This document shows positions 5,599 through 21,488 of a stretch of DNA of 64,000 nt, piece after piece. A program made the translations under genes and the position numbers. The stretch is taken from IMG/VR virus record IMGVR_UViG_2917886563_000007; one strand, given 5' to 3'. Each line of letters begins with the position of its first letter. Positions within the stretch are counted from its first letter, which is position 1. The notes beneath the pieces are model-generated. The model worked only from the letters and a program-made list of their open reading frames with translations. It had not been told where the DNA came from and ran no database searches. This stretch comes from a virus (Duplodnaviria > Heunggongvirae > Uroviricota > Caudoviricetes).

Positions 5599-5940
5599 TC
5601 AGCCTCCTAGGTCACTTTGGCTTCGTCGTAACAAGCCAGTTGCCTGTCGTGCTCGCAGGATATCTACCGCTCGAAGATAGGGTGATTGTTCCCGACAGTA
5701 GAACCCTCTGCGATCGATACGAACCAGTTCGTACTTATCTACCAAGAAGTTGACTGCATCGGCCAGGGTAATTCCGGCATCAATATGTTCCTTAATAACT
5801 GTTTTATCACTGAACGGCGTGTCGTTCAGTGTCAGGCCATAGTGCTGTTCCAGCAGGCGTGTCAGTAGCATTTGCCAGACAGCTACGGGCGACAGACAGG
5901 GCTTCGCCGCCCGCGAAATTGTAGCAGGTAGAGTTTTCAT
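5599..5940 (-). CDS. CbtA/YeeV/YkfI-family toxin
   Basis: 113-aa ORF resembling the YeeV/YkfI toxin family (…[15 protein letters not shown]…[14 protein letters not shown]…[11 protein letters not shown]…). Confidence 0.75.
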
Positions 5941-5959
5941 GCTTGCTCTCGTGAATTAG

Positions 5960-6277
5960 TTAGCGTTGAGTGGGATAAACAGCGATGTATGCGTAGCCGC
6001 AACTACCAAGGGTATCGGCTTCGCAGGTGAAACCATTGTGGTACAGGTTGACGCAGTGGGCATGTCGGGGATTCAGTTCACCGGTGATCAGCATCAATTC
6101 CATCTGGCTGATAAAGTGCGGGAAAGTTTCATCCAGTTTCCGGCATTCGGCGTCACTGAACTTACCGATGATGCTGGCCCGGTCAGCCAGGTAATGCAGC
6201 CGGTTCCCCTCCTGCACAAGGCGGGCTCCCAGGCGCGGCGTGATATCCCGCTGCAGGCCCCATGTGGTGTTGCTCAT
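5960..6277 (-). CDS. CbeA/YeeU/YafW-family antitoxin
   Basis: 105-aa ORF directly upstream of the toxin; …CFGARLVQEGNRLHYLADRA…ELMLITGELNPRH… resembles YeeU-type antitoxins. Confidence 0.75.
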   Translation of the reverse strand: MSNTTWGLQRDITPRLGARLVQEGNRLHYLADRASIIGKFSDAECRKLDETFPHFISQMELMLITGELNPRHAHCVNLYHNGFTCEADTLGSCGYAYIAVYPTQR

Positions 6278-6295
6278 TTATAACCTCTTTTATTG

Positions 6296-6529
6296 TCAGT
6301 TCAGGGTGATACTCATCAGGCAGGCATACGGTCCGTTGCGGTCCTGGCGGCGTTGGGCGTATACCGCCAGCACACCGGGAATGTCAGGAACCACCTGACC
6401 GGTGTAATGACAGACGCTACCGTGCCACTGATATTTTCCGGTGCAGTAGCGAAAGATTCGGGACTCAGGATGCTGGCGGTATATCGTCATTGCCCGGCGT
6501 TTACTGATAATTTTCATGTAATACCTCAC
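6296..6529 (-). CDS. YeeT/YkfH-like DUF987 protein
   Basis: 77-aa ORF (…MKIISKRRAMTIYRQHPESRIFRYCTGKYQWHG…) resembling YeeT family; conserved position between RadC-like and antitoxin genes. Confidence 0.65.
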   Translation of the reverse strand: MRYYMKIISKRRAMTIYRQHPESRIFRYCTGKYQWHGSVCHYTGQVVPDIPGVLAVYAQRRQDRNGPYACLMSITLN

Positions 6530-7002
6530 AGCAGACCGTGTCCTGCGAACGAATAGATTTGCCTGCCACCAACAATCAGATGGTCAGGGACACGGATATC
6601 CACCAGTTGAAGTACCTGAGTCAGTCGCTGCGTGAGGGCTTTGTCAGCCTGGCTGGGCGTCGTCTCGCCGGAAGGATGGTTATGCGCCAGTATCACCGCC
6701 GCCGCATTGAAGTGCAGTGCACGTTTGACCACTTCCCGGGGATGAACCTCGGTGCGGTTAATCGTGCCACTAAAGAGCGTCTCATGGGCGATAAGCTGGT
6801 TCTGATTATCCAGATACAGCACCCGGAACTCTTCCCGCTCAAGTGCGGCCATATGCAGTCGCAACCACTCCCGAACGGCGTGAGTGGAGGTGAAGGCTAC
6901 CCCGGGCTCATGCAGATGCCGGTCCAGAATCCTGAGCGCCCGCTGAATGAGACGCCGGTCCTGTGGCGTCATCTCGCCGGGTAAAAAGGAGAGCTGTTTC
7001 AT
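6526..7002 (-). CDS. RadC-like JAB/MPN domain protein (YeeS/YkfG family)
   Basis: 158-aa ORF with HNHPSG…T-P-S-x-AD motif typical of RadC-like JAB domain. Confidence 0.8.
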   Translation of the reverse strand: MKQLSFLPGEMTPQDRRLIQRALRILDRHLHEPGVAFTSTHAVREWLRLHMAALEREEFRVLYLDNQNQLIAHETLFSGTINRTEVHPREVVKRALHFNAAAVILAHNHPSGETTPSQADKALTQRLTQVLQLVDIRVPDHLIVGGRQIYSFAGHGLL

Positions 7003-7017
7003 CCGTTGTTCCTCCGT

Positions 7018-7476
7018 TCAGTCGATGATACGCAGAATGGAGTGAGCTTCAGGATGCTGCAGGGCATAGTCCCGCAAGCGATAATAGTGTGCGGTCATTG
7101 CGTCACATTCTGTACGACAGGCGTGATGGCTGTATTCAATCAGGCAGACCGCGATACCTGCGGCTTCCACACTCATTTCCGCACCATTACCGTTCATGCT
7201 GTTGAACAGATGCCATTTATCACCACCGTCAGCATCAGGGGCCATAAACGCACCGCCATTGCTGAGCGTGTAAAAGGACCAGATACCACCGCTGTACTCA
7301 TCACAGAAGCGCTCCATCCAGCCGAAAATACGGGGTTCCAGCGTTATCCACTGCGGAATAGCGCCAAAATACAGCGGCCAGAAATCGAGGCGCTGTTCGT
7401 CAGGTACTGGTGTTGCAGTGAGGTCAAATTGAGGTTCATTAGCGGACATCAATTCGCGTTTAGTTTGTGTCGTCAT
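7018..7476 (-). CDS. antirestriction protein (KlcA/ArdB-like, YfjX/YafX family)
   Basis: 152-aa ORF; …DEQRLDFWPLYFGAIPQWITLEPRIFGWM…YRLRDYALQHPE… resembles E. coli YfjX/YafX. Confidence 0.75.
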   Translation of the reverse strand: MTTQTKRELMSANEPQFDLTATPVPDEQRLDFWPLYFGAIPQWITLEPRIFGWMERFCDEYSGGIWSFYTLSNGGAFMAPDADGGDKWHLFNSMNGNGAEMSVEAAGIAVCLIEYSHHACRTECDAMTAHYYRLRDYALQHPEAHSILRIID

Positions 7477-7561
7477 GGATATTCTCCGTCAATAAAAACG
7501 CCAGCGACGATGGCTGGCGTATGGGAAATAAAGGGCATGCAGGGATGATGAATGGGTGTGG

Positions 7562-7798
7562 TCAGGAGGAGGATGCTCTGAGGATGCCTGACTTGCGGAT
7601 ATAACGGTTAAGCCCTTCACCGGCATCAGGTTCAAAGCACCACGCCCGCCAGACCATTCGACCTTCAGAGTCTCGAACCACCAGGCGGAAGTGGCTGCAC
7701 TGGTCATCTTCAATAGCGATATTTTTATACCGGCAGGTAACCGCTTCAGCCTGCTGTCGGGTGAACGGTCCCGGTGGCAACATATGAGATTCAGACAT
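7562..7798 (-). CDS. DUF905 protein (YkfF/YfjZ-like)
   Basis: 78-aa ORF …[15 protein letters not shown]…EDDQ…HFRLV…W…FEPDAG… matching the YkfF family pattern. Confidence 0.7.
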
Positions 7799-7875
7799 TC
7801 GGTGTACCTTAAAAGCAAAAGCCCCTGACGCAGACGCGTCAGGGGCTTTGGGAGTATGCAGGTGTCGGGTGATTG

Positions 7876-8286
7876 TCAGTAACCGGTTTGTACCTTATAC
7901 AGCCGCAGGGTTTTACTGCCCCGGACAATTTTCACATACAGGGCATTATCTTTCGTGCCTCGCACAAAACCGGCCTGCACATCGCCCTTACAGTCACCAC
8001 CATCGTAAGGAATGTTGACGCCGGTCTGACGCACCAGATCAATAATCCCGAAGCTTAAGTCCTCACAGGCCGGGCCCGGCAGGTCCTGAATCAGGGCAAA
8101 TTTATGGTCGTCGCTGACACCGGTCAGTGAGCACATGGAGGTGTTGATGTCGTTTCCCTGGCACCAGTACTCCTGGCCGGGATTGTCTTTATCCATCAGG
8201 CTTGCCGGAAGTTGAGCGGCACCGGCACTGAATGCGGCAAGTGACAGAATGAGAGCGGGTACAGCAGAGGTCATTATTTTCAGCAT
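7876..8286 (-). CDS. secreted hypothetical protein (signal peptide, 4 Cys)
   Basis: 136-aa ORF with N-terminal hydrophobic signal sequence ending AAQ. Confidence 0.5.
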
Positions 8287-8352
8287 GGTTTTCTTCCTGA
8301 ATTAATCCAGCCCGCTGTCGGGCAAAATGAGGGAGGTAGGTATCGGGTGTTA

Positions 8353-8790
8353 TCAGAAGCGCCGGTAGCGAAACAGCTCTTTGCCCTGGTACAACGCCAC
8401 CAGGTCGTCATATTCCGGCTTCTTCTGGTTGGGCATAAAGGTCACTACTGTGCCCGGACGGCACAGGTCTTTTACGGTGAGACCGAACTTCTTGTCCGGA
8501 GTAATGGTGAATCCCTTCGACACATCGTTGCGCATGATAGTTATCCAGCCCCACAGGCCGCCTTCGCAGTCTTTAAAAGGTGCTGAACGCACCGTGACCA
8601 TCCCGCCCTGACGGTCAACAGACATGGCTTCGCATTTTCCGGTAACCTGACGATGCGCATCACACCAGAAAATATTCCCGTTGTTGTCATTGACGACAGC
8701 AGGTAGCGTCCGGTTATAGGGCTGGGCCTGAGCCCCTGCACAAAGCAGAAGGCTGCCGGTAATGCCCAGTATTTTAATCAGTGTTTTCAT
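8353..8790 (-). CDS. secreted hypothetical protein (signal peptide, Cys-containing), possible distant paralog of upstream gene
   Basis: 145-aa ORF with signal peptide MKTLIKILGITGSLLLCAGAQA; similar W-C…C…C spacing to neighbour. Confidence 0.5.
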   Translation of the reverse strand: MKTLIKILGITGSLLLCAGAQAQPYNRTLPAVVNDNNGNIFWCDAHRQVTGKCEAMSVDRQGGMVTVRSAPFKDCEGGLWGWITIMRNDVSKGFTITPDKKFGLTVKDLCRPGTVVTFMPNQKKPEYDDLVALYQGKELFRYRRF

Positions 8791-8830
8791 TACGTTGGTC
8801 CTTAACAGGGAAGTATCAGGTAGCGGTGAT

Positions 8831-9367
8831 TCAGGCCCATACAGTCAGTGCCAGCATCACAAGCCATACCCAGAAGTAAGCCGGTTTCTGACCGAGGTTT
8901 TTCGCCCGACGCCACAGATAGAACGGCACCAGCCAGGCCAGTTTGCCGAACGTGGCGGTGTCCACTCCGGCCTTACGCAGGCGTCGTTCATCGAGATACC
9001 CCAGAGCGATATTGAGCAGCAGCGTGATAAACCAGTACTGCCCGCCCGAGACAGCCTCATATGCCTCGTCAAAAGACATTCCGTTCAGCCCTGCAGTCCA
9101 CAGCTCGAGCGCATAACCAATGAAGGGAGCAAATGCCAGCGTCCATACCACTGCACCCGGAATGCGGTTCCCCGGCAGCGCTGGTGGTGTAGTGCTGTGG
9201 AGCAGCGCTGAAGCCAGCGGGGTGGCGGAGACCGGTTGCCAGTCTGTCATGCCCTGTCGCCACACCAGCGTGGCAGCGGTGAGTTCACCGCGCGCAATCA
9301 GGCCAGTGATGTCGTCTTCGGTCACATTGTCGTGACGTATGCCATTTTTCTCGTAATGCCAGGTCAT
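8831..9367 (-). CDS. inner-membrane protein with N-terminal GYF-like (DUF4339-like) domain
   Basis: 178-aa ORF; N-terminal W…G…W motif region followed by hydrophobic helices. Confidence 0.45.
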   Translation of the reverse strand: MTWHYEKNGIRHDNVTEDDITGLIARGELTAATLVWRQGMTDWQPVSATPLASALLHSTTPPALPGNRIPGAVVWTLAFAPFIGYALELWTAGLNGMSFDEAYEAVSGGQYWFITLLLNIALGYLDERRLRKAGVDTATFGKLAWLVPFYLWRRAKNLGQKPAYFWVWLVMLALTVWA

Positions 9368-9392
9368 TGTTTTTCCTTCTTAACAGAGGTAA

Positions 9393-10103
9393 TTAAATCA
9401 GTGTGTTGCCCTGCTCCTCCTCAGAGGGCCCAGGAGACAGGACTTCACGAATACAGCTGAAGTGCGGAAGAGCCCGGATAAAGCCCGCCTGTGTGGTTAA
9501 CTGGCTGAGACGTTTTCGCGGGGTAAAAGTGGTGTTCAGGACTGTCACCGCATGGATGGTCGCCAGAGGGTGCACGGTGATATGCCCGTTAAGTTCACCA
9601 GTGAGGTACCAGCAGCCGTCGAGTGATATCAGGCGGTACGGGGCCAGCCCGTCACAGCGCTCTCCCTCGGCCAGCAGCAGTACCCGCTTGCAGGCGGTAA
9701 TGGCACTGACAAGACGGTAGAACACCAGTGAGATGGACGGTGATATAGTCTGTGGCGGCTGCCACACCAGGCACGGCATCCCTCCTGCAGTGAGCAGCAT
9801 GCCCGCCAGACGCCGGTCCAGCCCCGGAAAAATATCGGCCAGTCCGGCCCGGTGCGCGAAGGTCAGCGCATCGAGCTCGCCCTGTACGCCCCCACCGGTG
9901 CTACGCAGGCGGCATTGCCCCCGTCGATACTCAAGGTCGAGGTACAGCAGCCGTTCACGAAAATCCCGTCGCAGGGTACGGACTGACACACCAAACTCTG
10001 CAGCAAGTCGCGTCATGTTCAGCGTTTCACCGGCAACCAGGCGGCTGATTATCAGTGACAGCCTGACAGCCAGCCGGTCGTGACGGCGCTCTGCCTGTGT
10101 CAT
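9393..10103 (-). CDS. HTH-WYL domain transcriptional regulator (YfjR-like)
   Basis: 236-aa ORF; N-terminal HTH (…LNMTRLAAEFGVSVRTLRRD…) and C-terminal WYL-type region (…LISLDGCWYLTGE…). Confidence 0.65.
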   Translation of the reverse strand: MTQAERRHDRLAVRLSLIISRLVAGETLNMTRLAAEFGVSVRTLRRDFRERLLYLDLEYRRGQCRLRSTGGGVQGELDALTFAHRAGLADIFPGLDRRLAGMLLTAGGMPCLVWQPPQTISPSISLVFYRLVSAITACKRVLLLAEGERCDGLAPYRLISLDGCWYLTGELNGHITVHPLATIHAVTVLNTTFTPRKRLSQLTTQAGFIRALPHFSCIREVLSPGPSEEEQGNTLI

Positions 10104-10311
10104 CTCGAATCTCCGTAATAATTAACTGACTGAATATGAAATGATTCTAAAGAGGGGGGCGGACAGGGTATGGACACGGAATGAACTATTTTTTCTCTGC
10201 CACCGGAGGCAGGCCCGACGCGGCACACCGTGAAATACGGTGATAAAACACTCAATCCAATGGTGGTAAAACGGACAGGGAGTGTCCTTTCCCAACATAC
10301 TGATAACAAGC

Positions 10312-11136
10312 TCAGGACTGAAACCCACTCAGCATCGCTTCCGCTATCACCCAGAGAGCCCGGTTGAGCTTCACATCTCCGTCGATACCACGCACGGCGC
10401 GGGTATGCGTTCGCCCACCTTTTGCACTCCGACCACTGAGCCCGCCCTTAATCAGGTTCTCCTGAATACGCTGGTATGTGGTCCACAGATCATTGCTCTC
10501 ATCCTGCCAGCGGCGTGGGGAGAGTATCTGAGGTGCTGTCACCGGCTGGTGGTCCTCACCGAAACGGTACGTCAGTGCAGCCTGTGCCAGAGCCTGTTGT
10601 GCAGGTGGCGTCAGCATCAGCGACTGCATGGCATCCCGCTTCTCTTCCACACGGTCAAAAATCCCCAGCACTTCATACGCTCCTTCGATCACCTGACTCA
10701 CCACATCCCCTTTGTGCGGCACACGCACCTCGCCAAACGACTCACCGCAGACGAGTCCGTTCTGGCATACCGCACGGAATAATCCCGGTAGCATCTGATA
10801 CGAGCTGGAGCCGTCGTGAGAATTGAGCAGAATAATTTCCGGGACCTGCTTACCGGTAATCTGCCCCTCCCGACGCAGGCGCAGCATGTGCTTTGTATGC
10901 TCGCGACGCCCTGGGTCAGGTACTCGAGTCTGGCAGGCAAAGAACGGCTGAAAGCCTTCGCGCTGCAGGTTTTCAAGTACAGTAATTGTTGGTATCCAGG
11001 TATACCGGGCACTCCGGGACGCATGCTTCTCCTCACTGAACACACTGGGTACCACGCGATACAACTCTTCACGGGTTAACGGCCGGTCACGACGGATAAG
11101 ATTTGCTGCGCCAAAGCGCGAAGCCAGACGGGTCAT
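10312..11136 (-). CDS. DUF932 protein (YafZ/YfjQ family)
   Basis: ORF 10312..11184; likely start at internal Met (MTRLASRFG) giving about 274 aa; resembles YafZ/YfjQ. Confidence 0.7.
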   Translation of the reverse strand: MTRLASRFGAANLIRRDRPLTREELYRVVPSVFSEEKHASRSARYTWIPTITVLENLQREGFQPFFACQTRVPDPGRREHTKHMLRLRREGQITGKQVPEIILLNSHDGSSSYQMLPGLFRAVCQNGLVCGESFGEVRVPHKGDVVSQVIEGAYEVLGIFDRVEEKRDAMQSLMLTPPAQQALAQAALTYRFGEDHQPVTAPQILSPRRWQDESNDLWTTYQRIQENLIKGGLSGRSAKGGRTHTRAVRGIDGDVKLNRALWVIAEAMLSGFQS

Positions 11137-11229
11137 AAGCAGACTCCTCATGATGGAAAATACATACAAAAAGCCCCGCCGCAAAATCGCGGCAGGGCTC
11201 AGGAAACTACGGGTTGGAATGGTTAATGT

Positions 11230-12093
11230 TCAGAAGAAGAAATCCCAGACTGCACGGGCGACTGATACCACGATGTTGCGTACAGACTGGATAACTGTCC
11301 GAACCGGGGCCGGTATGAGTGGCAGGGAACTTACAGTGTCCAGTACCGAGCCTACTGTTTCACCAAAATCGTCACGGGCTTTTTTATTAACGGCATCGGT
11401 ACGAAGAGGAGCACTAAGCTGTACCGCTACCGGGCTACTGGCCTCACGCGGAAGGCAACGAATCATACGCTCTGCCATCACCCGCAGTCCCCAATGCAGA
11501 CGAACCGACACCGCACAGATCGGATTTACTGGTTGGAATAACTCATGCAGCAAGCAGATTTTGCGACTGATGTTCTGCTTTTGCTCCCTGGAGAGCTTAT
11601 CACCGCCGCTGGTGGGTTCAGCCTTATCCGACTGACTGATAACAAACAGCACCTTATGTCGGTAAGCCTCCCCAATTACCTGATGGTAAAATTGTTCATC
11701 CACCCCCAGCGCCCGATCATCAGCCTTAATCAGCCACAGTACCAGGTCGAGCCGGGGAAGTTGTTCGCGATACAGGGCGGCGTATTCAGTATCGCGCAAA
11801 CTACTTTCCCCCACGCCTGGTAGATCAACAAGGGTCATAACGCTCTCGCCCACTTGCAGGCTAAATTGTAAGGGGACGCGTGTGCAGGCGACTACATCGC
11901 TAACCGGTGAAACCTCACTGGCAAACAGGGCATTGCACAACGACGATTTTCCTGCCCCGGTTTTACCCATAATGCCGATCACAGGCTCGTAGTGAGTAAG
12001 CTGGTTTATCTGCTGCAGAATACGCTCCGATGCCCATTGCGGCAGGTCGGAAAGCGAGTCCTGCAGGTCAAGTAGACCTTCAATTTTTTTCAT
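11230..12093 (-). CDS. GTPase (YkfA/YfjP family)
   Basis: ORF 11230..12135; likely start MKKIEGLL; Walker A GKTGAGKSS and DxxG (DLPG) motifs. Confidence 0.75.
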   Translation of the reverse strand: MKKIEGLLDLQDSLSDLPQWASERILQQINQLTHYEPVIGIMGKTGAGKSSLCNALFASEVSPVSDVVACTRVPLQFSLQVGESVMTLVDLPGVGESSLRDTEYAALYREQLPRLDLVLWLIKADDRALGVDEQFYHQVIGEAYRHKVLFVISQSDKAEPTSGGDKLSREQKQNISRKICLLHELFQPVNPICAVSVRLHWGLRVMAERMIRCLPREASSPVAVQLSAPLRTDAVNKKARDDFGETVGSVLDTVSSLPLIPAPVRTVIQSVRNIVVSVARAVWDFFF

Positions 12094-12367
12094 CTCAACT
12101 CCGCTGAAAAGTAAAACATAAAACGGTAAAACCAAATGGTTTTACCGTTTAAAAGGAAATGTTCAGGGGAATGATATATATCTTAATGTTTTTAGAATGG
12201 ATTCATATATGATGTTGATCTTATTCAAGATATCCTAGAGTATCATTCTGTTGATAACATATTGAATTTGGTTAAAATAATTGAGCCTGATATCCCTTTT
12301 TACTGAATTTCAAGAGGTATTGGGTTGTGTTCGTTCGCCCAATTCTATTGATGACAAGGAAAAGCAA

Positions 12368-15300
12368 ATGGTTAGTAGCCAGTATCCCCGGGGTTCAGAA
12401 TGGCATAAGTGGGATTTACATATTCACACTCCAGCATCTTTTCATTGGAATGGCCCGAGATTTAAGTCAGATCCACGCTCACCAGAGAACGCCCCACTAG
12501 TGGATGCAATGATCAATGCTATGAATGCAGCAGAACCAATCGCATTTGCGATTATGGATTATTGGACCTTTGATGGATGGTTTGCGTTAAAACATCGATT
12601 GACGCAAGAAGATGCCCCCAAGCTAGAAAAAACCGTTTTTCCTGGAATTGAATTGCGGTTGATGGCGCCAATGCGTGGAAGGCTAAATGCTCACGTTCTT
12701 TTTTCTGATCATATACCAGATCAGGAGCTTATTGATTTCAAGAGTAAACTAGAGGTTGCTCTAATAAATAAGTCATTATCAGATTCAGCCTTAATCCAAA
12801 TAGCTAGGGAGGCTGCACCAGATAAATTGCGGCATCATAGTCTCAACCAACAAAAGATTCTTCAATCTGATGCTGATGCTCTCAAGGCTGGTTCAATAAT
12901 AGCCGAGGTTACATGTGAGAGTTATCAAAAAGCAATTAACAGTGTCAGCAAAAATCAAGCTATTGGGTACATGCCATTTGATACCAATGATGGGCTTACT
13001 GAAATTGAGCGTAACGCGCATTATGCATTCGCATTAACTCTTTTCAAGACATCACCAATATTTGAAACAAGGGATTATGCTACGTGGGCAGCTTTCGCTG
13101 GTGTAAAGGTCCCTGAAAATGAAAGGTGGTTTGATGCTTTTCAAAAGGCTTTAAATAATAAACCTAGACTTGCTATTTCAGGGAGTGATGCTCACTGCTT
13201 TGTTGGAGAACCTGGTAACAATGATCGCCGAGGATATGGTGACTACCCTTCAGGAAAGGCAACATGGATAAAGGCTAATCCAACATTTGACGGATTAATG
13301 CAAGCAATAAGAGAACCAGCAAAACGTTCATTTATTGGTGCTATTCCTAAAAAACGGAAATTAGTAAGCGAAAACAGAAGTCTATTTATTGAAAAGCTAG
13401 AAGTTAAAAAATCAATTGATTCATCAATCAATGAATCCTGGCTCGACAATACGGATATACATTTAAATCACGATTTAGTCGCTATTATTGGTAATAAAGG
13501 TAGTGGTAAAAGTGCATTGGCTGATATTGCAGCGTTGCTTGGTAACTCTAAACAAAGTCATCATTTTTCCTTCCTAAAGGAAAATCGATTTAGAGGAAAA
13601 ACAGGTGAGCCAGCACGTCACTTCAATGCAAAAATAGTATGGAGTGATGAAAAAGAGTTAACAAAAAACCTTAATGATAATCCAGCAACTGAAAATGTTG
13701 AATTAATAAAATACATTCCACAAGGCCATTTTGAAGAGTTGTGTAATGCTCATGTATCGGGCCAATCAGATGCATTTGAAAAAGAACTAAGATCTGTAAT
13801 CTTCTCACATGCAGATGAATCTATACGCTTAGGTGCTCATGATTTTGAAGATCTGATAGAAAAGCAGGAGAGCTCTCTTCGAAGCCAACTAGAAAGCTAT
13901 CGTAGTGAGATGCATAAACTCAATGAACAAGTAATGTTTATTGAGAGCCAAATGACCGATGAAGCAAAAAAAGCACTTGATGAAATGTTGGCTCAAAAAG
14001 TTAGATTACTGGAAGAGTTGATCAAAGCAAAGCCAGAAGAAGTTCCTGAACCATCTAATGAGCTTACACAGGAACAACAACAAATATCTGAACAGCTATC
14101 AAACATCAATCAAGAATTAGAAAAGTTACAGAAGCAGCAAGAATCAGACCTAGAAGAACTTACAAAGTTAGCCGGAAAGAGAAAAGCAAGCAAGAATATT
14201 AAGGCTGGTTTTGAAATCGTCAAACGTGCAGTTAATCAATTTGTGTCAGAGTTTGATTCAGATGCTAAACTCCTTGGTTTGGATATAGAGAGTTTAGTTA
14301 GAGTTGATGTTGATGAAAAAACTCTCTCTGCATTAGACGATGCTGGTTCACTTCGTGAAAAAGAAATCAAAGAACGTCAATTAACCCAAGTGGCTAGTAA
14401 ACAATTAATTTTGGAGAAAAAAGCTCCACTAAATGCACAGTTGAATGCCCCACAACAAGCATACCAGTTGTTTAAAGAACAGCTCAAAGCTTGGGGTGAG
14501 AAACATGCAGCATTATTAGGAAACAAAGATGATCCAGATACACTCGAAGGTATCAAGCATAGAATATCTAAACTGGAGCAACTTCCAAGTCAACGATTAG
14601 AATTACATGAGAAACGAAACGATTTGACTCGAAAAATTTTTACAATTCTTAATGAGCAAAAAGAGAATCGTGAAACCCTTTTCGAACCAGTACAATCACT
14701 TATTCAAAATAATATTCTTATCCGTGATGAATACAAACTACAATTTAGAGCTGAACTAAGTAGCACTGCAGATCTAATTTCAAATAGATTATTTTCCATT
14801 GTTAAGCAAGCGTCGGGTGAATTTAGGGGCGAATCAGAGAGTCTTTCAGTAATTAAAGACCTTATGGATCGACATGATTTAAATGACCAAGAATCTTTAC
14901 TCATGTTTGTCCAGGAATTGCACAGAAAACTAGAGAGTTCTTCTAAGAATCCAGTTGGTGTAGCTTCATTGTTACGCAAAGATCGTACAGCTAATGAAGT
15001 TTATGACCTTATTTTTGGCTTAGAGTACCTTGAGCCAAGATATACATTAATGTTTCAAGATGCTCAAATAGGACAATTGTCTCCTGGACAAAGAGGGGCC
15101 TTACTTCTGATTTTCTATCTGCTTGTGGATAAAGGAAATACACCAATAATTCTGGACCAGCCTGAAGAGAATCTTGACAATGAAACTATTGTTAGCCTGC
15201 TTGTACCTGTTTTAACGGAAGCAAAGCAAAAACGACAGATTATTATGGTTACACATAATCCGAATCTTGCAGTTGTTTGTGATGCAGAGCAAATTATCCA

Positions 15301-15442
15301 TTGTGAGTTTGATCGCACAAAGGGGCACAAAATAACATATACCCCAGGAGCTATTGAGTGTAGCGTAATTAATAACAAAGTGGTTGATGTTCTTGAAGGA
15401 ACTATGCCTGCATTTGATAATCGTAGAATGAAGTATATGTGA
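12368..15442 (+). CDS. PHP-domain nuclease fused to SMC/Rad50-like ABC ATPase with long coiled coil (Ppl-like candidate antiphage protein)
   Basis: ORF 12281..15442 (1053 aa); best start ATG 12368 after AAGGAAAAG RBS. N-term PHP motifs (WDLHIHTP…, …SGSDAH…), Walker A IIGNKGSGKS, about 450-aa coiled-coil region rich in E/K/Q/L, C-terminal Walker B/D-loop ILDQPEENLD and H-loop MVTHNP. Confidence 0.7.
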   Translation: MVSSQYPRGSEWHKWDLHIHTPASFHWNGPRFKSDPRSPENAPLVDAMINAMNAAEPIAFAIMDYWTFDGWFALKHRLTQEDAPKLEKTVFPGIELRLMAPMRGRLNAHVLFSDHIPDQELIDFKSKLEVALINKSLSDSALIQIAREAAPDKLRHHSLNQQKILQSDADALKAGSIIAEVTCESYQKAINSVSKNQAIGYMPFDTNDGLTEIERNAHYAFALTLFKTSPIFETRDYATWAAFAGVKVPENERWFDAFQKALNNKPRLAISGSDAHCFVGEPGNNDRRGYGDYPSGKATWIKANPTFDGLMQAIREPAKRSFIGAIPKKRKLVSENRSLFIEKLEVKKSIDSSINESWLDNTDIHLNHDLVAIIGNKGSGKSALADIAALLGNSKQSHHFSFLKENRFRGKTGEPARHFNAKIVWSDEKELTKNLNDNPATENVELIKYIPQGHFEELCNAHVSGQSDAFEKELRSVIFSHADESIRLGAHDFEDLIEKQESSLRSQLESYRSEMHKLNEQVMFIESQMTDEAKKALDEMLAQKVRLLEELIKAKPEEVPEPSNELTQEQQQISEQLSNINQELEKLQKQQESDLEELTKLAGKRKASKNIKAGFEIVKRAVNQFVSEFDSDAKLLGLDIESLVRVDVDEKTLSALDDAGSLREKEIKERQLTQVASKQLILEKKAPLNAQLNAPQQAYQLFKEQLKAWGEKHAALLGNKDDPDTLEGIKHRISKLEQLPSQRLELHEKRNDLTRKIFTILNEQKENRETLFEPVQSLIQNNILIRDEYKLQFRAELSSTADLISNRLFSIVKQASGEFRGESESLSVIKDLMDRHDLNDQESLLMFVQELHRKLESSSKNPVGVASLLRKDRTANEVYDLIFGLEYLEPRYTLMFQDAQIGQLSPGQRGALLLIFYLLVDKGNTPIILDQPEENLDNETIVSLLVPVLTEAKQKRQIIMVTHNPNLAVVCDAEQIIHCEFDRTKGHKITYTPGAIECSVINNKVVDVLEGTMPAFDNRRMKYM

Positions 15443-15455
15443 TGTTTGCATAAAA

Positions 15456-15492
15456 CTGCCCATCTATAAGTTTTAGATGGGCAGTTTCTTTC
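15456..15492 (+). terminator. Rho-independent terminator after the PHP-ATPase gene
   Basis: ctgcccatcta…tagatgggcag stem followed by tttctttc. Confidence 0.7.
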
Positions 15493-15623
15493 GAAGTTAC
15501 CGGGGGCACATTGGCAGTGCGATAAATCAATAATATCTTTTATGATATTCGGATTTATATTATGGAATGATATAAGTGCTTATAAACTTTTACTGGAATT
15601 TAATGGGGTTGTATTATAACCAA

Positions 15624-16244
15624 CTACCCTCGACTGCATCCGAAATTTCTGTCACCTTCACCAAATATTTTTGTATCTAACTTGGTTAAATAGTCTAGAC
15701 GGGTGAGAAGGTCGTTATACACAATGTCAAAATCCGGATCGTTAACATTCAATACATATCTACAATTCTCCGGGAAATGAACCAGATTCCTGCAATCCTC
15801 AGGTTCAAGATTAAGAGCACTATACCATGCTCTAGTTATCATATTAGTGAGCGTACCGCTATGTTCATGATGACCCAAGTGATAGTAAGCATCTTTATTG
15901 AAAAATAGACAAGTGTGAAAATGACATTTTCCACTCTGCGTGTATTCCCTTGCCCAGAGTTGGCGTATTGAATTTGGTTTTATTCTAATCCCAGCGCATA
16001 CTCTACGGTTTTCACTAGCAGCTAATATAGCTTTTAATGAATTTATAAAGCGAGATATTGCTCCAGGTTCAAGATTATGAAAACAACAAACTGTGTCGCC
16101 ATTATCAAGGATTTTCGGATAATGAAGATCAACCCTTAACGCCATAGTTTTGGAGAATTGATGAATAGCATTGTTAATCACGGTAGCAATATTGTCTCTA
16201 TAAGAGATGATATGATTGCCATGAGTACCATTATAGATTTTCAT
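15624..16244 (-). CDS. YagK/YfjJ-family protein
   Basis: 206-aa ORF with features of YagK/YfjJ family typical of CP4 islands; Cys/His-rich (…CCFHNLEPG…, …CHFHTCLFF…). Confidence 0.55.
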   Translation of the reverse strand: MKIYNGTHGNHIISYRDNIATVINNAIHQFSKTMALRVDLHYPKILDNGDTVCCFHNLEPGAISRFINSLKAILAASENRRVCAGIRIKPNSIRQLWAREYTQSGKCHFHTCLFFNKDAYYHLGHHEHSGTLTNMITRAWYSALNLEPEDCRNLVHFPENCRYVLNVNDPDFDIVYNDLLTRLDYLTKLDTKIFGEGDRNFGCSRG

Positions 16245-16466
16245 AATAATAAGACCATAGTTGCTCTTATCTTAAATAAGAGCATGTTGATTAATATCTT
16301 TTCTATAGAGCAAATGAATTAATGTTTTGGCAATCACATACAACACTTCTATTAGTTATCAATAGAAACGACAATATATTACCTTTCCACCACCATTTAC
16401 CTATATCAGGTCTGTTCCAGCCTAAAGATTACGAGTGCAATTCGCTCTGCATTTAGCTTTGTACTT

Positions 16467-17912
16467 TTACACGATGTATTGTGTGCTGATAGATTGCATA
16501 TAGTCTATATCAGGACCGATATATAAAGATCTTCCACGTTTAGCTATTCTGATTTTTCCTTGCTGAACTAAAATTTCCAATAAACCATCTGCGACTTTCT
16601 TTCTTCTCAATCGATTAGGTCCAAAGGAGTAAATTAACACTTTGTTAAAATAAATTATGGAGTTGTCTTCGCAATATTTTATAACCCAGTTAAATAATTC
16701 TTCAGAATCAACTTGTTCCTCTTTTTTATCTAGGAGCTTAGGAGGTGAAAATATACGGATATATTCATCTGTAAACCAAAGTGTAATTTCAATTGCTGCC
16801 TCTATGGCTTCTAAAGAAATATCACCTTCCCCATGGTTAAAATAAAATAGAAGTGCTGATATTCTTGCTGCATTTTCTGCAATTTTAGAAGCATAATCTT
16901 TGATGTCAGAAAATAATCCAAATCCAAGCATCCCCATTTCGGACTCTACTTGATTATGAAATTGTATCCATCTTTCTTGTGCTTCCGGAGAAAAGTAGAG
17001 GCAGGTCCGTTTGCTGTTTTTATTTGATGCAATGTTTGTCTTAATAATCTCCATTAATCTCTTATGAAACAATGGAAGATGTTCATTTGAAGTGACTGGG
17101 TTAGTTATTGTTCTGTAACCTTGTTTCGAGTGAGGTTGACAAATCAAAAATCGATTGAATATCCCAATTCCCTTTGCTATATCACCTTTATTTTTAATAT
17201 ATCTGCTAATAACGCTAGGTTGCGCCATCAATCCTGCTGTTAGGGTTGCATTTTTAATTAATCTATCCGGTTCATTCTTTCTTTGCAGTGTGTATGTAGA
17301 ACCATCCCACATTTTGTTGAGGAAGGGTAAGTCACCTAGGATATAGCCATTAAATACAGTTCCTGCTTCATCAGAAAAAATTCCGACAGAACGCCAATGA
17401 CCGGAAAGATAATCTTTTAAAGCAGCGGGTGTCGCGTCATTAAATATCATCCTATATTTTATTGGTTCTTCTGGGTAAGAAGAAAGAAGTTCTTCAAGTC
17501 TTTTACGATGCTCAGAAATATCTCTATTGCAGCGAATGTCTGACTTGATTTTTGCTATAATTAATTTCTTTTCAATATCTATTATTTCAATTGTGTTTTT
17601 GTATGATAGCATTTCATTTAGATGCTTTTCAAATAACAATTCTTCAAATTCATATATCGGGTTAAATATTTGTTTGTAAACACCTGTTTTCCTTTCTCCA
17701 GAATCGGCGATTGTCAACAAATATAATGATGCAGGGCCAGTAATGTTATTTATCCTACATACATCTATACTATTCTGACAGGCTAAAGAAATGGCACTTA
17801 GTATAGCTGAAGAAATCAATGATAGTGGGGCTTGAGTATGCTGTTCTACTTCATAGACAGCATTTCTGGCTAGTGAGGGCAGCGTGTGTACAGGGAAATT
17901 TTTATCTAACAT
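16467..17912 (-). CDS. DUF3987-like protein (YfjI family; primase/helicase-associated)
   Basis: 481-aa ORF in the position and size of YfjI-like genes upstream of AlpA and integrase in P4-type islands; low-GC. Confidence 0.5.
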   Translation of the reverse strand: MLDKNFPVHTLPSLARNAVYEVEQHTQAPLSLISSAILSAISLACQNSIDVCRINNITGPASLYLLTIADSGERKTGVYKQIFNPIYEFEELLFEKHLNEMLSYKNTIEIIDIEKKLIIAKIKSDIRCNRDISEHRKRLEELLSSYPEEPIKYRMIFNDATPAALKDYLSGHWRSVGIFSDEAGTVFNGYILGDLPFLNKMWDGSTYTLQRKNEPDRLIKNATLTAGLMAQPSVISRYIKNKGDIAKGIGIFNRFLICQPHSKQGYRTITNPVTSNEHLPLFHKRLMEIIKTNIASNKNSKRTCLYFSPEAQERWIQFHNQVESEMGMLGFGLFSDIKDYASKIAENAARISALLFYFNHGEGDISLEAIEAAIEITLWFTDEYIRIFSPPKLLDKKEEQVDSEELFNWVIKYCEDNSIIYFNKVLIYSFGPNRLRRKKVADGLLEILVQQGKIRIAKRGRSLYIGPDIDYMQSISTQYIV

Positions 17913-17924
17913 AATAACCTCCTT

Positions 17925-18161
17925 TCATCGTTTTTCTTCAGAAGCGAAGAGAGTGTGGATATAGCTTTGAACGTCATCCCAGAGCCAGTAGTTTTTTTTG
18001 TTAATTTTTTTTGGTCTTACCAAACCAGATGGTAATTGATCTTGGCACAACCATTTTCTGATTGTTTGCGGTTTACAATTCAACAGTTGTGCTAAATCAT
18101 TAGTAGAAACAAGTCGGATGTTGCTTGGAGATGATGCTTCACTTATTTGAAATTTGCTCAT
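17925..18161 (-). CDS. AlpA-family transcriptional regulator / excisionase
   Basis: 78-aa ORF; HTH …LVSTNDLAQLLNCKPQTIRKW… typical AlpA/phage excisionase. Confidence 0.7.
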   Translation of the reverse strand: MSKFQISEASSPSNIRLVSTNDLAQLLNCKPQTIRKWLCQDQLPSGLVRPKKINKKNYWLWDDVQSYIHTLFASEEKR

Positions 18162-18634
18162 GATGCCACCCCGGAGATAAAAACGTGGGCAAATGAAGCA
18201 ATAGGTAGGACGCAGGCTTTGTTTAAGAGATAGGAGGCGTTTAAGGAAAGGATAGAGAATAAGGAGGATGATCTGAGTACACTTGCAGGCTCGGGATCAC
18301 CACCTTCACTTGAACCGGTGGAAAAAGATCCCTTTGCTGACTTGGTGCTACTACGATGCGCTCTCGAGGTATGAGTTTTAAATGGCACTGAACGAGAAAT
18401 CACGTTAGCTAAAGCAATTTTGCATGCCTTGTTTCGTACATTTTTCCGATAAATAGCCTGATCCATTACATGAAGGGCGACTTTCTTATAGTGGTTTTTA
18501 AACCATTGCTCAATGGGGAGTCCATTAGATGATGGTGAATGGTATTGGATTTCAAAATTGATCTCGGGCAGTCCAAGCAGATTCGCCAGAATCTCTTGAC
18601 TATCATCTAACACGGGGTTGTAACTATTAAACAT
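18158..18634 (-). CDS. hypothetical protein
   Basis: 158-aa ORF overlapping AlpA start by 4 nt; no recognised motif. Confidence 0.35.
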   Translation of the reverse strand: MFNSYNPVLDDSQEILANLLGLPEINFEIQYHSPSSNGLPIEQWFKNHYKKVALHVMDQAIYRKNVRNKACKIALANVISRSVPFKTHTSRAHRSSTKSAKGSFSTGSSEGGDPEPASVLRSSSLFSILSLNASYLLNKACVLPIASFAHVFISGVAS

Positions 18635-18762
18635 TCTGATATTTCTCCTCTAGGGTCGTGAACTAATGAGGCGATTTTTATCCAAGTTTCAATATCTGTC
18701 AATAACTCTTTTATTTTTCAGGGTTAATGTAACATATTGATATTTAATGAAATCAACGCGTA

Positions 18763-20160
18763 TCAACACTCGATTTTTTCATAAATAGAGGCCTGTTCTA
18801 AGATCCAGCTCTCAATTTTTTCATGCCATTTACGCAACAAATCTAATGGACGACGACGGTAGTGTTTCTCAGCTAGAGCACTAGGTTTATGGCCCATAAT
18901 CTGCGCAACTATGCCAGTTGGCACTTCGACCCATTCGGCGAGCGTACCAAAACTACGACGTAATCCATGCAGGCTGATGTGTGGTAATTCAGCCTTAGCT
19001 AAGGCCCGATTGTGTGCGGAACGCGGTTCAATAATTTTGCCGCTTTTGCTATTACTCCTGAAAACCCAATCCTCCTTATTTACGTCAGAATTTGGTGTTT
19101 GCACCAATGCGCGTAACAGGTGAGTGACATAAGGAGTAAGAGGTATGATACGTTCGCCTTCGATCTTGTCTTTAATCCGCATACTTGACCATTTGAAATC
19201 GACGTCAGACCACCGAAGTGACGCAATTTCTTCGCGTCGCGCTCCGGTGAGTAAAAGTACCTGGAGATAGGCCGATGCAATGGGATTGTTGAGGTTACGC
19301 ACGGCACTGAACCAGCTTTTTAACTGTTCTTTTTGTAAGCAATCTCCCGCTTTACTCGCTGATACTGGAACCAATTTTCTCACGTTATGATCTTGTGCAA
19401 GATCGCCATGGATTATTCCCTGATATTTTTTCTGGTAATTAACCCATTTGATAAATGCACGCAACAGACGGTAGGCATGAGCAGTGACGGTAGGCCGATT
19501 TTGTCTTTCTGTACTTAGCCATGCGGCAATGTTCTCTGGTGTTAGTTCCGATAACGGTAGGTCGAGCAAGCTAGCCAATGGTCCAGCCGAGGTTGGGCCC
19601 CGGCCTCTTTTTTTACTTTCTCCTCCACGGCTGGACAAGTTCACGTGATCGGCAATATAACGTGCAGAGTAAGGACGTTTAGTTTTTGCGCTGATTCCGG
19701 TTCTCAATTCTTGAAGATAATCTTCCCAAGCGCTTGAGAAGGTTACCTTCGTTTTACGAGATTCAGCCTGCTGTGATTCCGCTTCAGCAATTTTTTCTGC
19801 TTTAGCTATACGCGGATCTATCCCAGTATCGATTAATGTTTGCAGCCGCCTGGCTTCGGCCCTGGCATCATCAATCCTCCAATCGTTAATGTTGCCAATG
19901 GTCATGCGAAGGGTTTTTCCCGCATATACGCTTTGGAACACAAAAGCTTTTGTTCCGCGAGTTGCCCGGCATGCCAGAGTTGTTACATCCGCATCCCAAA
20001 GAAATGCTTGGTTTTTCCCTTCAGTTAAAGCAAATTTTCGAATACGCTCGAAGGTGAGTTTTTGTCTCGGAAGTGCCATTTTTGGGCTCCAGATGAGAAA
20101 GGTTACATCACCATAATGTAACGGCTGGTGTAAGTAAATTAGGGGAATACACATCAACAC
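18763..20160 (-). CDS. tyrosine integrase (P4/IntF-like)
   Basis: 465-aa ORF (alternative start at 20079, MALPRQK); C-terminal catalytic residues …HGLRRSF…IMGHK…Y…; adjacent to the tRNA-derived repeat. Confidence 0.85.
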   Translation of the reverse strand: MLMCIPLIYLHQPLHYGDVTFLIWSPKMALPRQKLTFERIRKFALTEGKNQAFLWDADVTTLACRATRGTKAFVFQSVYAGKTLRMTIGNINDWRIDDARAEARRLQTLIDTGIDPRIAKAEKIAEAESQQAESRKTKVTFSSAWEDYLQELRTGISAKTKRPYSARYIADHVNLSSRGGESKKRGRGPTSAGPLASLLDLPLSELTPENIAAWLSTERQNRPTVTAHAYRLLRAFIKWVNYQKKYQGIIHGDLAQDHNVRKLVPVSASKAGDCLQKEQLKSWFSAVRNLNNPIASAYLQVLLLTGARREEIASLRWSDVDFKWSSMRIKDKIEGERIIPLTPYVTHLLRALVQTPNSDVNKEDWVFRSNSKSGKIIEPRSAHNRALAKAELPHISLHGLRRSFGTLAEWVEVPTGIVAQIMGHKPSALAEKHYRRRPLDLLRKWHEKIESWILEQASIYEKIEC

Positions 20161-20261
20161 CTGTCAATTTTTATCAACAGGTGTGTTTTATAAGTTAATG
20201 TTTTATAATGAACTAATTGTTTTAAGAGTAGGTTTTTAAAGGGGTAAAAGTATAATAACGT

Positions 20262-20310
20262 CGCATTCGTAATGCGAAGGTCGTAGGTTCGACTCCTATT
20301 ATCGGCACCA
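20262..20310 (+). repeat. 49-bp direct repeat of thrW 3' end (att core; pseudo-tRNA)
   Basis: cgcattcgtaatgcgaaggtcgtaggttcgactcctattatcggcacca identical to 1396-1444; flanking approx 20 bp also similar (t(c)taaatcaat(a/t)agttac). Confidence 0.9.
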
Positions 20311-20324
20311 TCTAAATCAATAAG

Positions 20325-21488
20325 TTACACATCATTAGTACCTTCCTTATTTTTTGACTGGGACAAATTTGGGACCGATGGGTTCAGGATCGAGTCTATT
20401 TGCCGTGCGTGTTCGGTAAGGTGATTAGGTGCAAGGTGAGCATATCGACGAACCATTTCGATAGACTCCCAGCCTCCCATTTCCTGTAACACTGACAACG
20501 GGACTCCGGCTTGAACCAGCCAACTTGCCCAGGTGTGTCTCAAGTCGTGAAATCTGAAATCATCAATACCAGCCCGTCTCAGCGCCGCTTTCCAGGCTGT
20601 GTTTGCGTCATACCGCATCTTCCTTACTGTTGGCGCTTTCGTTCCGTCTGGTTTGGTACAGCTTTCCTTGTACACAAATACCCAACGGTGATGATTCCCG
20701 ATTTGTTTTTTCAATACGCGACATGCAGTATCATTCAGCGCAACGCCAATTGCGCGGTTTGATTTACTCTCTTCCGGGTTTATCCATGCCACCCGGCGCT
20801 GCATATCTATTTGTTGCCATTCAAGGTTGATGATGTTCGAGCGTCTTAAACCTGTTGCCAGTGCAAATTCAACAACAGACTTTAATGGCTCCGGACATTC
20901 ATCAATCAGCCTTTGTGCTTCATGAGGCTCCAGCCAGCGGATCCGTTTATTCTTTGGTTGAGGCACTTTAATAATTGGTGCCTTATCCAGCATTTTCCAT
21001 TCACGCTCTGCGGCTCTTAGCAGGGCCTTTATAAATGAAAGATGCGTTGCCTTCGTTGCAACGGACGCTGGTTTTGGCGTGTATTCTGGAACTGGTTTCC
21101 CTTTTTTTCTGCATGCTTCTGCCCTGAGTTTCCAGTTTTCCTCATGACGCCGGTTCGTCATTTTCTGCATTGCTGAATAAATTTTTGATTCAGTAATGTC
21201 TCTTAGTTGCATTCCTGCGAAATGTTGAAGCCAGAATCCGATCCGGCTTTTGTCATCGTCCAGTGATTTTTTATGTGCTTTCTCTTCGAGCCACCTGACA
21301 CACGCCTCCTCGAACGTCATATCAGGTATTTCACCAAGTTTGCTGACCCGCCATGCTTCAGCCTTTAGCTTGTCATGGAGCTCTGTCGCCTGCCTTTTGT
21401 CCTTTGTTCCAAGAGACTGTTTAAATCTTTTACCGTTCGGCAATGTGAAACTGGCGTACCATATTTCACCTCTGCGGAAGAGTGACAT
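20325..21488 (-). CDS. int: tyrosine integrase (P22/DLP12 IntD-like)
   Basis: 387-aa [44 protein letters not shown]… matching P22/DLP12-type Int as recalled; stop codon 14 bp from tRNA repeat. Confidence 0.9.

Follow-up and report, generated by a model that had tools for sequence, protein, structure and literature searches.

The PHP-ATPase gene and its island

The window analysed here is a whole stretch of 64,000 nucleotides from the IMG/VR virus record IMGVR_UViG_2917886563_000007 (Caudoviricetes), and our subject is a gene at positions 12368-15442 on its plus strand, whose product joins a predicted PHP-fold phosphoesterase to a Rad50/SMC-class ATP-binding cassette (ABC) ATPase (hereafter the PHP-ATPase). 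Translation of this uninterrupted open reading frame (ORF) gives 1024 residues followed by a stop codon, as an earlier interpretation made from the letters alone (the sequence-only reading) had held. The start is the ATG at 12368, and the N-termini of homologues coincide with the same methionine; a mechanical ORF list places it upstream, at TTG 12281. A Shine-Dalgarno-like AAGGA (12356-12360, plus strand) can be read from the sequence 7 nt before the ATG, and a sigma-70-like promoter candidate, TTGATA-16-TAAAAT (12251-12278, plus strand), lies ~90 nt 5' of it. The candidate agrees with the consensus at 10 of 12 positions and was the top scorer in a consensus scan; it is a consensus match alone, promoter-like sites being not significantly enriched relative to shuffled sequences. 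Downstream, the RNA fold of 15453-15492 (plus strand) reveals an intrinsic terminator with a 14-bp stem (15453-15466 paired with 15474-15487), a 7-nt loop and a U-rich tail (dG -24.1 kcal/mol, z -6.31), which none of 200 shuffled sequences matched in folding. It is located between the PHP-ATPase gene and a convergent yagK/yfjJ-like gene (15624-16244, minus strand), and the upstream neighbour, a GTPase gene (11230-12135, minus strand), is divergent. Neither flanking gap contains a credible partner ORF, and no methyltransferase or helicase, including remnants of these, flanks the gene; a hidden small partner gene was accordingly considered and rejected. The solitary position and the dedicated terminator claimed in the sequence-only reading were thus both recovered, with a promoter-like site of the gene's own, neighbours in divergent and convergent orientation and no partner ORF.

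The gene is borne on a CP4-6-like integrative element at tRNA-Thr. The last 30 nt of tRNA-Thr(CGT) (1369-1444, plus strand; ARAGORN), constituting attL at the left edge (1415-1444, plus strand), recur exactly as attR at the right edge (20281-20310, plus strand), just past the integrase gene, and therefore delimit an island of 18.9 kb (1445-20310). The integrase (18763-20160, minus strand) combines Arm-DNA-bind_3 and Phage_integrase domains; hence, the locus presents a tyrosine integrase with an arm-binding domain, direct repeats of a tRNA 3' end and conserved backbone genes, which bears out its description as a P4-type island. This backbone comprises cbtA, cbeA, radC, an antirestriction-like gene, a WYL/DeoR gene, DUF932 and the GTPase gene (5599-12135, minus strand) on one side of the PHP-ATPase gene; on the other lie the yagK-like gene, DUF3987, AlpA, a 158-aa ORF and the P4-type integrase (15624-20160, minus strand).

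The GC content, 0.53-0.59 in the backbone, drops to 0.33-0.40 over 12-18 kb, with the PHP-ATPase gene itself at 0.36-0.40 against 0.53-0.59 in the adjoining island backbone. Exactly where the high-GC backbone meets the low-GC cargo, a 13-bp perfect hairpin (AAACGGTAAAACC/GGTTTTACCGTTT; 12121-12150) overlaps the TTG at which the GTPase ORF nominally begins; it may represent a terminator or else a scar of the junction. The flank from proA (1-1254, plus strand) to thrW is ~96% identical to E. coli, and a megablast of the PHP-ATPase gene against 5,426 complete E. coli genomes returned no match. The thrW island of E. coli ET245 is syntenic with the window island and carries other cargo in the corresponding slot (L017, 14488-20513), which identifies this slot as a site of variable cargo. 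Its content in ET245 consists of a hypothetical protein, a winged helix-turn-helix regulator, a multiubiquitin-domain protein, a ThiF-family E1-like enzyme, a DUF6527 protein and a BRO protein, an assemblage that looks like a ubiquitin-like conjugation operon of the defence type. The island with the PHP-ATPase gene is also present in one NCBI assembly and two Logan assemblies, and an exact-protein look-up of the yagK-like neighbour, aimed at alternative cargos, returned the same island only.

The PHP domain

Throughout, our point of comparison is Ppl, a single-gene anti-phage system (Gao et al., 2020), for which the protein of the F plasmid (WP_000233113) served as the authentic reference. Residues 8-335 of the window protein (12389-13372, plus strand) constitute the PHP-fold phosphoesterase/nuclease domain, with a helical subdomain inserted at ~residues 115-260. 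The segment WDLHIHTP (residues 15-22) contains the HxH motif (H18, H20; 12419-12427, plus strand), whose histidines are putative metal ligands aligning with Ppl H12/H14, and the segment GSDAH (residues 272-276; 13181-13195, plus strand) supplies D274 and H276, the C-terminal DxH metal-binding motif of the PHP fold, which aligns with Ppl D210/H212. Conservation was computed on 144 homologues, each less than 60% identical to the query. Among these, D16, H18, H20, D64, E95, D274 and H276 are 94-100% conserved (the HxH histidines 94-98%, D274 100%, H276 99%), and H109 is conserved at 83%. Taken together, H18, H20, D64, E95, H109, D274 and H276 match Ppl H12, H14, D47, E86, H94, D210 and H212, respectively.

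A Pfam search, the check that had been suggested alongside the PHP assignment, failed: the PHP model (PF02811) matched neither the whole protein at E<=1 nor residues 1-345 at E<=10, and the assignment therefore needed structure. A profile of 28 N-terminal domains searched against PDB sequences had four PHP proteins as its best matches, at marginal E-values of 0.002-0.11; the alignments fall at the HxH and GSDAH motifs, the latter aligned with the GSDAH of PsfC and the GSDSH of YcdX. An AlphaFold model built on the N-terminal-domain alignment was obtained with a predicted local distance difference test score (pLDDT) of 92.7 and a predicted template modelling score (pTM) of 0.90. In a Foldseek search of this model against the PDB, the top 22 matches were all PHP enzymes, among them RNase AM, TM0559, BAD_1165, Cv1693, the PHP domains of Pol III alpha/PolC/DnaE1, and EndoQ. 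The N-terminal PHP domain of the sequence-only reading is thus sustained by the predicted fold, along with the weak profile matches to PHP proteins.

The ATPase head and the helical insert

The remainder of the protein is an ABC ATPase split by a long insert. Its N-terminal lobe (residues 340-482; 13385-13813, plus strand) is recognised by Pfam AAA_29/SMC_N, and by profile as akin to Rad50, SMC and AriA; the C-terminal lobe (residues 875-1024; 14990-15439, plus strand) matches AAA_21 above the gathering score (34.9 against 27), with SMC_N just under its own (34.8 against 40). The full motif complement of the SMC/Rad50 class is present: Walker A GNKGSGKS (residues 375-382; 13490-13513), the Q-loop Q452 (13721-13723), the signature LSPGQ (15077-15091), the Walker B/D-loop IILDQPEENLD (residues 927-937; 15146-15178), the H-loop MVTHNP (residues 960-965; 15245-15262), all on the plus strand, and a helical insert between the lobes. 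K381, Q452, S905-P-G, D930, Q931, P932, E933, D937 and H963 are essentially invariant among the 144 homologues. All the motifs quoted in the sequence-only reading (WDLHIHTP, GSDAH, GNKGSGKS, ILDQPEENLD at residues 928-937, and MVTHNP) are present, and they are not chance occurrences, since their key residues are invariant or at least 94% conserved. Profiles of the ATPase matched Rad50, SMC6 and AriA; phmmer with the single sequence against the PDB retrieved generic ABC ATPases only. The full-length AlphaFold2 model (pLDDT 91.3, pTM 0.77) has Rad50, MukB, SMC heads, JetC, LmuB, RecN and AriA as its fold matches. Motifs, profiles and predicted fold thus concur with the Rad50/SbcC-like ATPase proposed earlier.

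The insert was less accurately foreseen: rather than a coiled coil of ~450 residues made of two helices, it spans ~370-380 residues (~484-860; 13817-14947, plus strand) and is built of four long helical segments. As delineated by DSSP on the AlphaFold2 model, these are residues 493-553, 568-635, 651-717 and 726-789, accompanied by shorter helices and separated by breaks at 554-567, 636-650 and 718-725. Two prolines at the first turn, P556 and P562, are conserved at 94% or more. A CxxC zinc hook is found nowhere in the window protein.

The Walker B region reads D930-Q931-P-E933, with a glutamine, invariant in 144 of 144 homologues, at the position that aligns opposite the catalytic glutamate in the DEP of LolD; authentic Ppl likewise has DQPE. 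In ABC ATPases, a Glu-to-Gln change at the catalytic position preserves nucleotide-dependent engagement of the heads and cripples hydrolysis. The invariant glutamine following the Walker B aspartate thus makes it probable that hydrolysis is slow, and, given the known effect of this substitution, the head would act as a switch or sensor rather than a motor. More specifically, this natural 'EQ' head suggests slow hydrolysis or nucleotide sensing, although E933 could serve as a substitute catalytic base.

These features place the protein alongside, and apart from, the Mre11-Rad50/SbcCD complexes, of which the sequence-only reading had called it an analogue. The likeness lies in the predicted coupling of an SMC-class ABC head and a helical arm to a metal-dependent nuclease, and Rad50 is the best match of the ATPase by both sequence profile and fold. 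In contrast, the nuclease is of the PHP fold and in cis, rather than a separate calcineurin-like Mre11/SbcD, and no SbcD-like gene was found among the window genes near the PHP-ATPase. Further, P556/P562 stand at the first turn and no CxxC hook is present, the arm consists of four helical segments, each ~65 residues long, instead of a single long antiparallel pair, glutamine replaces the catalytic glutamate, and the gene is cargo of a mobile element rather than a core gene. The analogy is therefore a loose one, which extends to the coupling of ATPase and nuclease and stops at the zinc hook, the shape of the insert and the catalytic residue.

A broader thematic equivalence, the logic of an ATPase sensor joined to a nuclease effector, is shared with OLD, Gabija (GajA), PARIS (AriA/AriB), Septu (PtuA/B), Lamassu (LmuB/LmuA), Wadjet (JetC/JetD) and MADS (mad3). 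The window protein gave weak hidden Markov model (HMM) matches to mad3, AriA, GajA, PtuA, JetC and LmuB, none of them at the family level, and its fold matches to defence ATPases were LmuB, JetC and AriA. It differs from all these systems in that its effector is a PHP domain, rather than TOPRIM, HNH, Cap4 or another domain, and in that it is a single polypeptide. Membership of OLD, Gabija or PARIS was rejected, since a Pfam scan gave no match to a TOPRIM domain and AriA and GajA were matched only weakly in the ATPase region.

Relationship to Ppl and the TrlF family

The window protein is a full-length member of the NCBIfam family NF045780, 'TrlF family AAA-like ATPase' (it scores 678.7 bits where 350 is the cut-off; residues 8-1023 aligned with positions 1-943 of the 944 of the model), and its closest relatives bear this name in RefSeq. 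The name says nothing on function, and 'AAA-like' understates the PHP domain. The equivalog model of Ppl itself, NF042955, gives 76.5 bits against a cut-off of 1000, in two stretches of which the best covers the C-terminal third only, and NF045781 (Spaf_1101) gives 115 bits against 475, in the C-terminal part only. The PADLOC model of Ppl (PDLC02208) matched at E 1.4e-18 (64.4 bits) in three partial stretches, the best at residues 899-1019, and the PADLOC HMMs run against the N-terminal 345 residues alone gave no match to Ppl or any other model. On reference proteins, NF042955 awards 1330.5 bits to the F-plasmid Ppl and 1146.3 to a Shewanella Ppl with 36% identity; intermediate clades obtain ~610-635 bits, against 76-94 for the window clade. 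Conversely, Ppl passes the TrlF model with 476 bits.

By BLASTP, the window protein and F-plasmid Ppl share only three collinear patches: the HxH region (residues 9-30 with Ppl 3-24), GSDAH through Walker A, and the signature through the H-loop (34% identical to Ppl residues 771-885). Profile-profile comparison with hhalign of the window clade (100 sequences) and Ppl (27 sequences) extends these to a full-length collinear alignment (query 7-1024 with Ppl 13-904; probability 100%, E 8.1e-45, 824 columns, 19% identity). When the search is begun from Ppl, proteins named Ppl (to ~35% identity) grade continuously into proteins named TrlF that are 29-33% identical over their full length. We take TrlF, on these sequence comparisons, to be an umbrella family within which Ppl is one clade, the window protein belonging to a remote clade of ~1024 residues as against the ~890-930 residues of the Ppl and other clades that the umbrella takes in. 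The window protein is, by the same measures, a distant relative of Ppl and not a member of Ppl as curated; the Ppl match of the sequence-only reading thus stands as regards architecture and full-length homology, and its label gives way to TrlF.

The shared architecture is in the order PHP, ABC N-lobe, long helical insert and ABC C-lobe, with PHP HxH, E, H and DxH, GxxGSGKS, SPGQ and the unusual Walker B D-Q-P-E in common, and both are encoded by a stand-alone gene on a mobile element. The window protein is ~130 residues longer, with an enlarged PHP helical subdomain and a longer insert. No Ppl structure was found in the PDB, by sequence or by fold. The origin of the NCBI name 'TrlF' was not found in the literature, and its derivation from 'Type III restriction-linked' was considered, with no evidence for it; PHP and Ppl are not mentioned in the Dnd and BREX papers of the Aravind group. 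On IncF plasmids, we observed either Ppl (891 aa) or a different TrlF-family protein of ~893 aa (L012, 3766-6447; L011, 3679-6354), whose similarity to Ppl is patchy, with 36% over the C-terminal ~140 residues; the two may represent alleles that alternate in a single defence slot of such plasmids.

Distribution and gene neighbourhoods of the homologues

The family comprises 1,354 clusters at 50% identity (E<=1e-30), with more than 500 matching stretches among species representatives. Its distribution is sporadic over more than 10 phyla, the best 78 loci alone coming from Proteobacteria, Bacteroidota, Firmicutes, Actinomycetes, Verrucomicrobia, Chloroflexi, Nitrospirae, Planctomycetes and Patescibacteria. 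Matches occur in 1153 plasmid records, 830 of them conjugative, and homologues are lodged on plasmids, integrative elements and small variable islets, with neighbours rich in restriction-modification (R-M) genes, in line with the mobile, defence-related setting that the sequence-only reading had set against housekeeping repair operons.

Of approximately nine close relatives (at least 64% identity) with examined context, eight are solo. These include one in Serratia (in a chromosomal islet between regulator genes), those on Providencia plasmids (between ParE and ParA), and those in Microbulbifer, in a Pantoea integrative element and on a V. cholerae IncC plasmid. The closest named homologue, 82% identical and in the mnmE island of V. 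parahaemolyticus, instead lies 54 bp after Mod (N6_N4_Mtase) and a ResIII helicase. Our neighbourhood statistics cover 63 homologue loci, in which the neighbouring genes lie at median distances of 124 and 157 nt, and a co-oriented neighbour within 60 nt exists upstream in 15 loci and downstream in 15. Among the genes immediately adjacent, enrichment is seen for R-M and defence families, the most prominent being N6_N4_Mtase (8), ResIII (6), DEAD/Helicase_C, Type I S subunits (4), SNF2 (3), DUF2130 and Schlafen/AlbA_2.

In at least eight of the 63 loci, in addition to the Vibrio homologue, a methyltransferase of the N6_N4 lineage is directly adjacent, with or without a helicase. In L022-L024 (52-53% identical to the window protein), an SNF2 helicase, the PHP-ATPase and the N6_N4 methyltransferase follow one another with overlapping stop and start codons, and in L054 and L076 the order is DUF2130, PHP-ATPase, methyltransferase. 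The coupled loci are L002 (5685-13075; Vibrio), L022 (3062-10750), L024 (191-7979) and L054 (4742-10654), and further L076 (2931-8999), L077 (4102-9030) and L092 (3128-9096). Since the methyltransferases of Vibrio, L022 and L054 are homologous (40-51% identical to one another), a single lineage of these enzymes recurs with the PHP-ATPase across phyla and gene orders. These loci could represent an undescribed R-M-like system with the PHP-ATPase as its nuclease. They recall Type III or DISARM-like R-M systems, in that some homologues are in operons of Mod and a ResIII/SNF2 helicase to which the PHP-ATPase would supply the nuclease; in canonical Type III systems, however, Res itself carries the nuclease, as a PD-(D/E)xK motif rather than a PHP-ABC ATPase, and the window locus is without an adjacent methyltransferase or helicase. 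The 'single gene' of the sequence-only reading is therefore an apt description of the window locus and of most others, with these operonic loci as exceptions. At L026 (3272-5896), a further arrangement was seen: an 875-aa SMC_N/AAA_23 ATPase without a PHP domain is encoded immediately upstream of a 49%-identical homologue, on the same strand with a 95-nt gap.

Proposed function and competing explanations

We consider it reasonably probable, if far from certain, that the window gene encodes an autonomous, horizontally acquired anti-phage or anti-mobile-DNA nuclease of the PHP-ABC-ATPase (TrlF/Ppl) superfamily. We favour this reading because of the architecture of the protein, its homology to Ppl, the att-bounded island, the variable slot, the low GC content, the Type II R-M pair carried on the same island, the lack of a match in complete E. 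coli genomes despite the E. coli-like flank, and the ecology of the family. Autonomy at this locus is further suggested by the promoter-like site and terminator of its own, the neighbours that are not co-directional and the solo close relatives. Ppl has been described, at first, as an anti-phage system of one gene that was still uncharacterised and, later, as an exonuclease system likewise made of one gene. E. coli Ppl is reported to be a 3'-5' single-stranded DNA exonuclease, which is inhibited by nucleoside triphosphates (NTPs) bound at both domains and activated by NTP depletion together with 3'-OH ends (mechanism attributed to Xu et al., 2026, Mol Cell 86:180). Ppl is countered by gp130 of phage Bas63.

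Building on the folds, motifs, homology, mobility and defence-type neighbourhoods observed above, we propose a mechanism in which substrate, polarity, trigger, NTP gating and phenotype are all stated conditionally. From sequence and predicted structure, the N-terminal PHP domain would be a metal-dependent phosphodiesterase with H18, H20, D64, E95, H109, D274 and H276 as ligands, and the two ATPase lobes would come together as a Rad50/SMC-type head bearing the long helical arm. By homology to Ppl and Rad50/SMC proteins, two such heads would engage through nucleotide held between Walker A and LSPGQ, serving as a sensor or switch of nucleotide occupancy more than as a motor. Also by homology, head and arm may then recognise a feature exposed by invading DNA, such as ends or 3'-OH overhangs, and this recognition would license the PHP domain in cis to degrade the invader DNA, thereby halting replication of the invader.

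Several observations weigh against this reading, in particular against its reliance on Ppl. The failure of the curated Ppl model and the mere 19% identity in the profile-profile alignment make the transfer of the Ppl mechanism weak; phage protection is reported for Ppl itself, to which the window clade is likened from sequence and predicted structure. The PHP site also differs. The full set that is invariant in Ppl (H12, H14, D47, H48, E86, H94, H155, D210, H212) is not reproduced: the 'DH' of canonical PHP domains and of Ppl (D47-H48) is D64-Y65 in the window protein, the second position being Tyr in 87% of the clade and His in 13%, and no conserved His aligned with Ppl His155 when a counterpart was sought in the alignments. 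Metal stoichiometry, substrate and polarity could consequently differ from those of Ppl. Moreover, the nearest PHP structures include the endonuclease EndoQ and RNase AM, a 5'-3' exoribonuclease, and thus fix neither DNA or RNA specificity nor polarity. A literature search on TrlF-family proteins found no paper on them and no published function, its matches being to TRLFS spectroscopy and an unrelated trlF of tropolone biosynthesis. Finally, the location of the 82% homologue in a Mod-helicase operon means that autonomy is not guaranteed.

This last point leads to the explanation that the PHP-ATPase is the nuclease subunit of an R-M-like system of methyltransferase, helicase and PHP-ATPase, the window copy being an orphan that might be inert, deregulated or reliant on unlinked host functions. 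The Vibrio operon, the SNF2, PHP-ATPase and methyltransferase genes of L022-L024 with their overlapping codons, the mutual homology of the methyltransferases despite differing gene orders and phyla, and the direct adjacency of this lineage at eight of 63 loci speak in its favour. However, at most loci, the eight close relatives noted above among them, the gene is solo, its ORF is intact and of full length, and the catalytic residues are invariant. The window gene, moreover, is framed by a promoter-like site and a terminator of its own with no methyltransferase or helicase remnant beside it, and Ppl, with the same architecture, is described as a single-gene system; we regard this explanation as improbable for the window gene. 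An unlikely but appreciable alternative is that the protein serves the mobile element itself, either in competition between mobile elements, through anti-plasmid exclusion as in Wadjet, or in processing DNA ends or secondary structures during maintenance. In its favour, family members including Ppl abound on conjugative plasmids near replication, partition and toxin-antitoxin modules, MukB and, from the anti-plasmid system Wadjet, JetC are among the top structural matches over the full length, and the gene adjoins the yagK/DUF3987/AlpA/integrase module of the island, with which it shares a low GC content. Against this, the neighbours vary from locus to locus and show no consistent association with genes for replication or transfer, the syntenic ET245 island functions without the gene, and an activity against mobile elements would overlap with defence rather than exclude it.

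The idea of a housekeeping repair enzyme, a one-polypeptide analogue of SbcCD/Mre11-Rad50 acting on hairpins or double-strand breaks, draws on the fusion of a Rad50/SbcC-like ATPase to a nuclease domain and on the proofreading that PHP domains carry out, as exonucleases, in Pol III alpha, PolC and PolX. It is nonetheless highly improbable, and we rejected it on distribution and context: the gene had no megablast match in the 5,426 complete E. coli genomes, it has a foreign GC content within an att-bounded island, its relatives are sporadically distributed on plasmids and islands beside R-M and defence genes rather than in repair operons, and there is no zinc hook.

Other features of the thrW site

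The island carries further genes to the left of the PHP-ATPase. Directly adjoining tRNA-Thr and attL is a 421-aa ORF with no assigned family (1767-3032, minus strand), which had no Pfam, PADLOC or PDB-sequence match. In complete E. coli genomes, its flanks alone matched, and it is missing from the syntenic ET245 island; hypothetical proteins encoded by Yersinia ruckeri plasmids share 97% identity with its product, and it is a second unique cargo gene of the island. It is followed by a Type II R-M system (3490-5199), in which an HNH endonuclease gene (3490-4149, plus strand) is convergent with a C5 cytosine methyltransferase gene of the Dcm type (4216-5199, minus strand); PADLOC labels the pair REase_II (E 5e-21) and MTase_II/DruM-like, and the ET245 island has it too. 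Within the backbone, a 236-aa DeoR-HTH protein (9393-10103, minus strand) matches the PADLOC WYL model (E 4.5e-18); WYL regulators often control defence or mobile-element genes.

Directly past attR lies a second tyrosine integrase (20325-21488, minus strand), belonging to the stretch at 20311-~60000 in which a lambdoid prophage stands in tandem with the island, with Dam, a YqaJ exonuclease, RecT, a CI-like S24 repressor and high-GC structural genes. The thrW site is hence a two-element array of island and lambdoid prophage. A far att site of the prophage was not found with a 16-30-nt probe of the tRNA end.

Implications for Ppl-type immunity

The protein family described here is already catalogued, and its nearest characterised relative, Ppl, is known. 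Ppl is among the few defence nucleases that unite sensor and effector in a single polypeptide, and its mechanism has been reported only recently. The window locus belongs to a sister group that is much larger and more diverse; the curated Ppl HMM rejects the window protein, of which the PADLOC model detects the C-terminal region only. More generally, it is possible, albeit doubtful at present, that the clade constitutes a portable nuclease module deployed in two modes, either solo, with invader DNA recognised through structural or metabolic cues, or as the restriction subunit accompanying an N6/N4 methyltransferase and an SNF2/ResIII helicase, with the Gln-bearing head as a nucleotide-occupancy switch in both. 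The recurrent coupling to one methyltransferase lineage across phyla suggests a possible use of this nuclease module in R-M-like systems as well; if so, methylation would shield self DNA, and a PHP domain would do the cutting that is otherwise the task of PD-(D/E)xK, HNH or PLD nucleases. If the clade is active, it would test NTP gating and DNA-end sensing under an altered PHP metal site, and the census of Ppl-type immunity would grow substantially.

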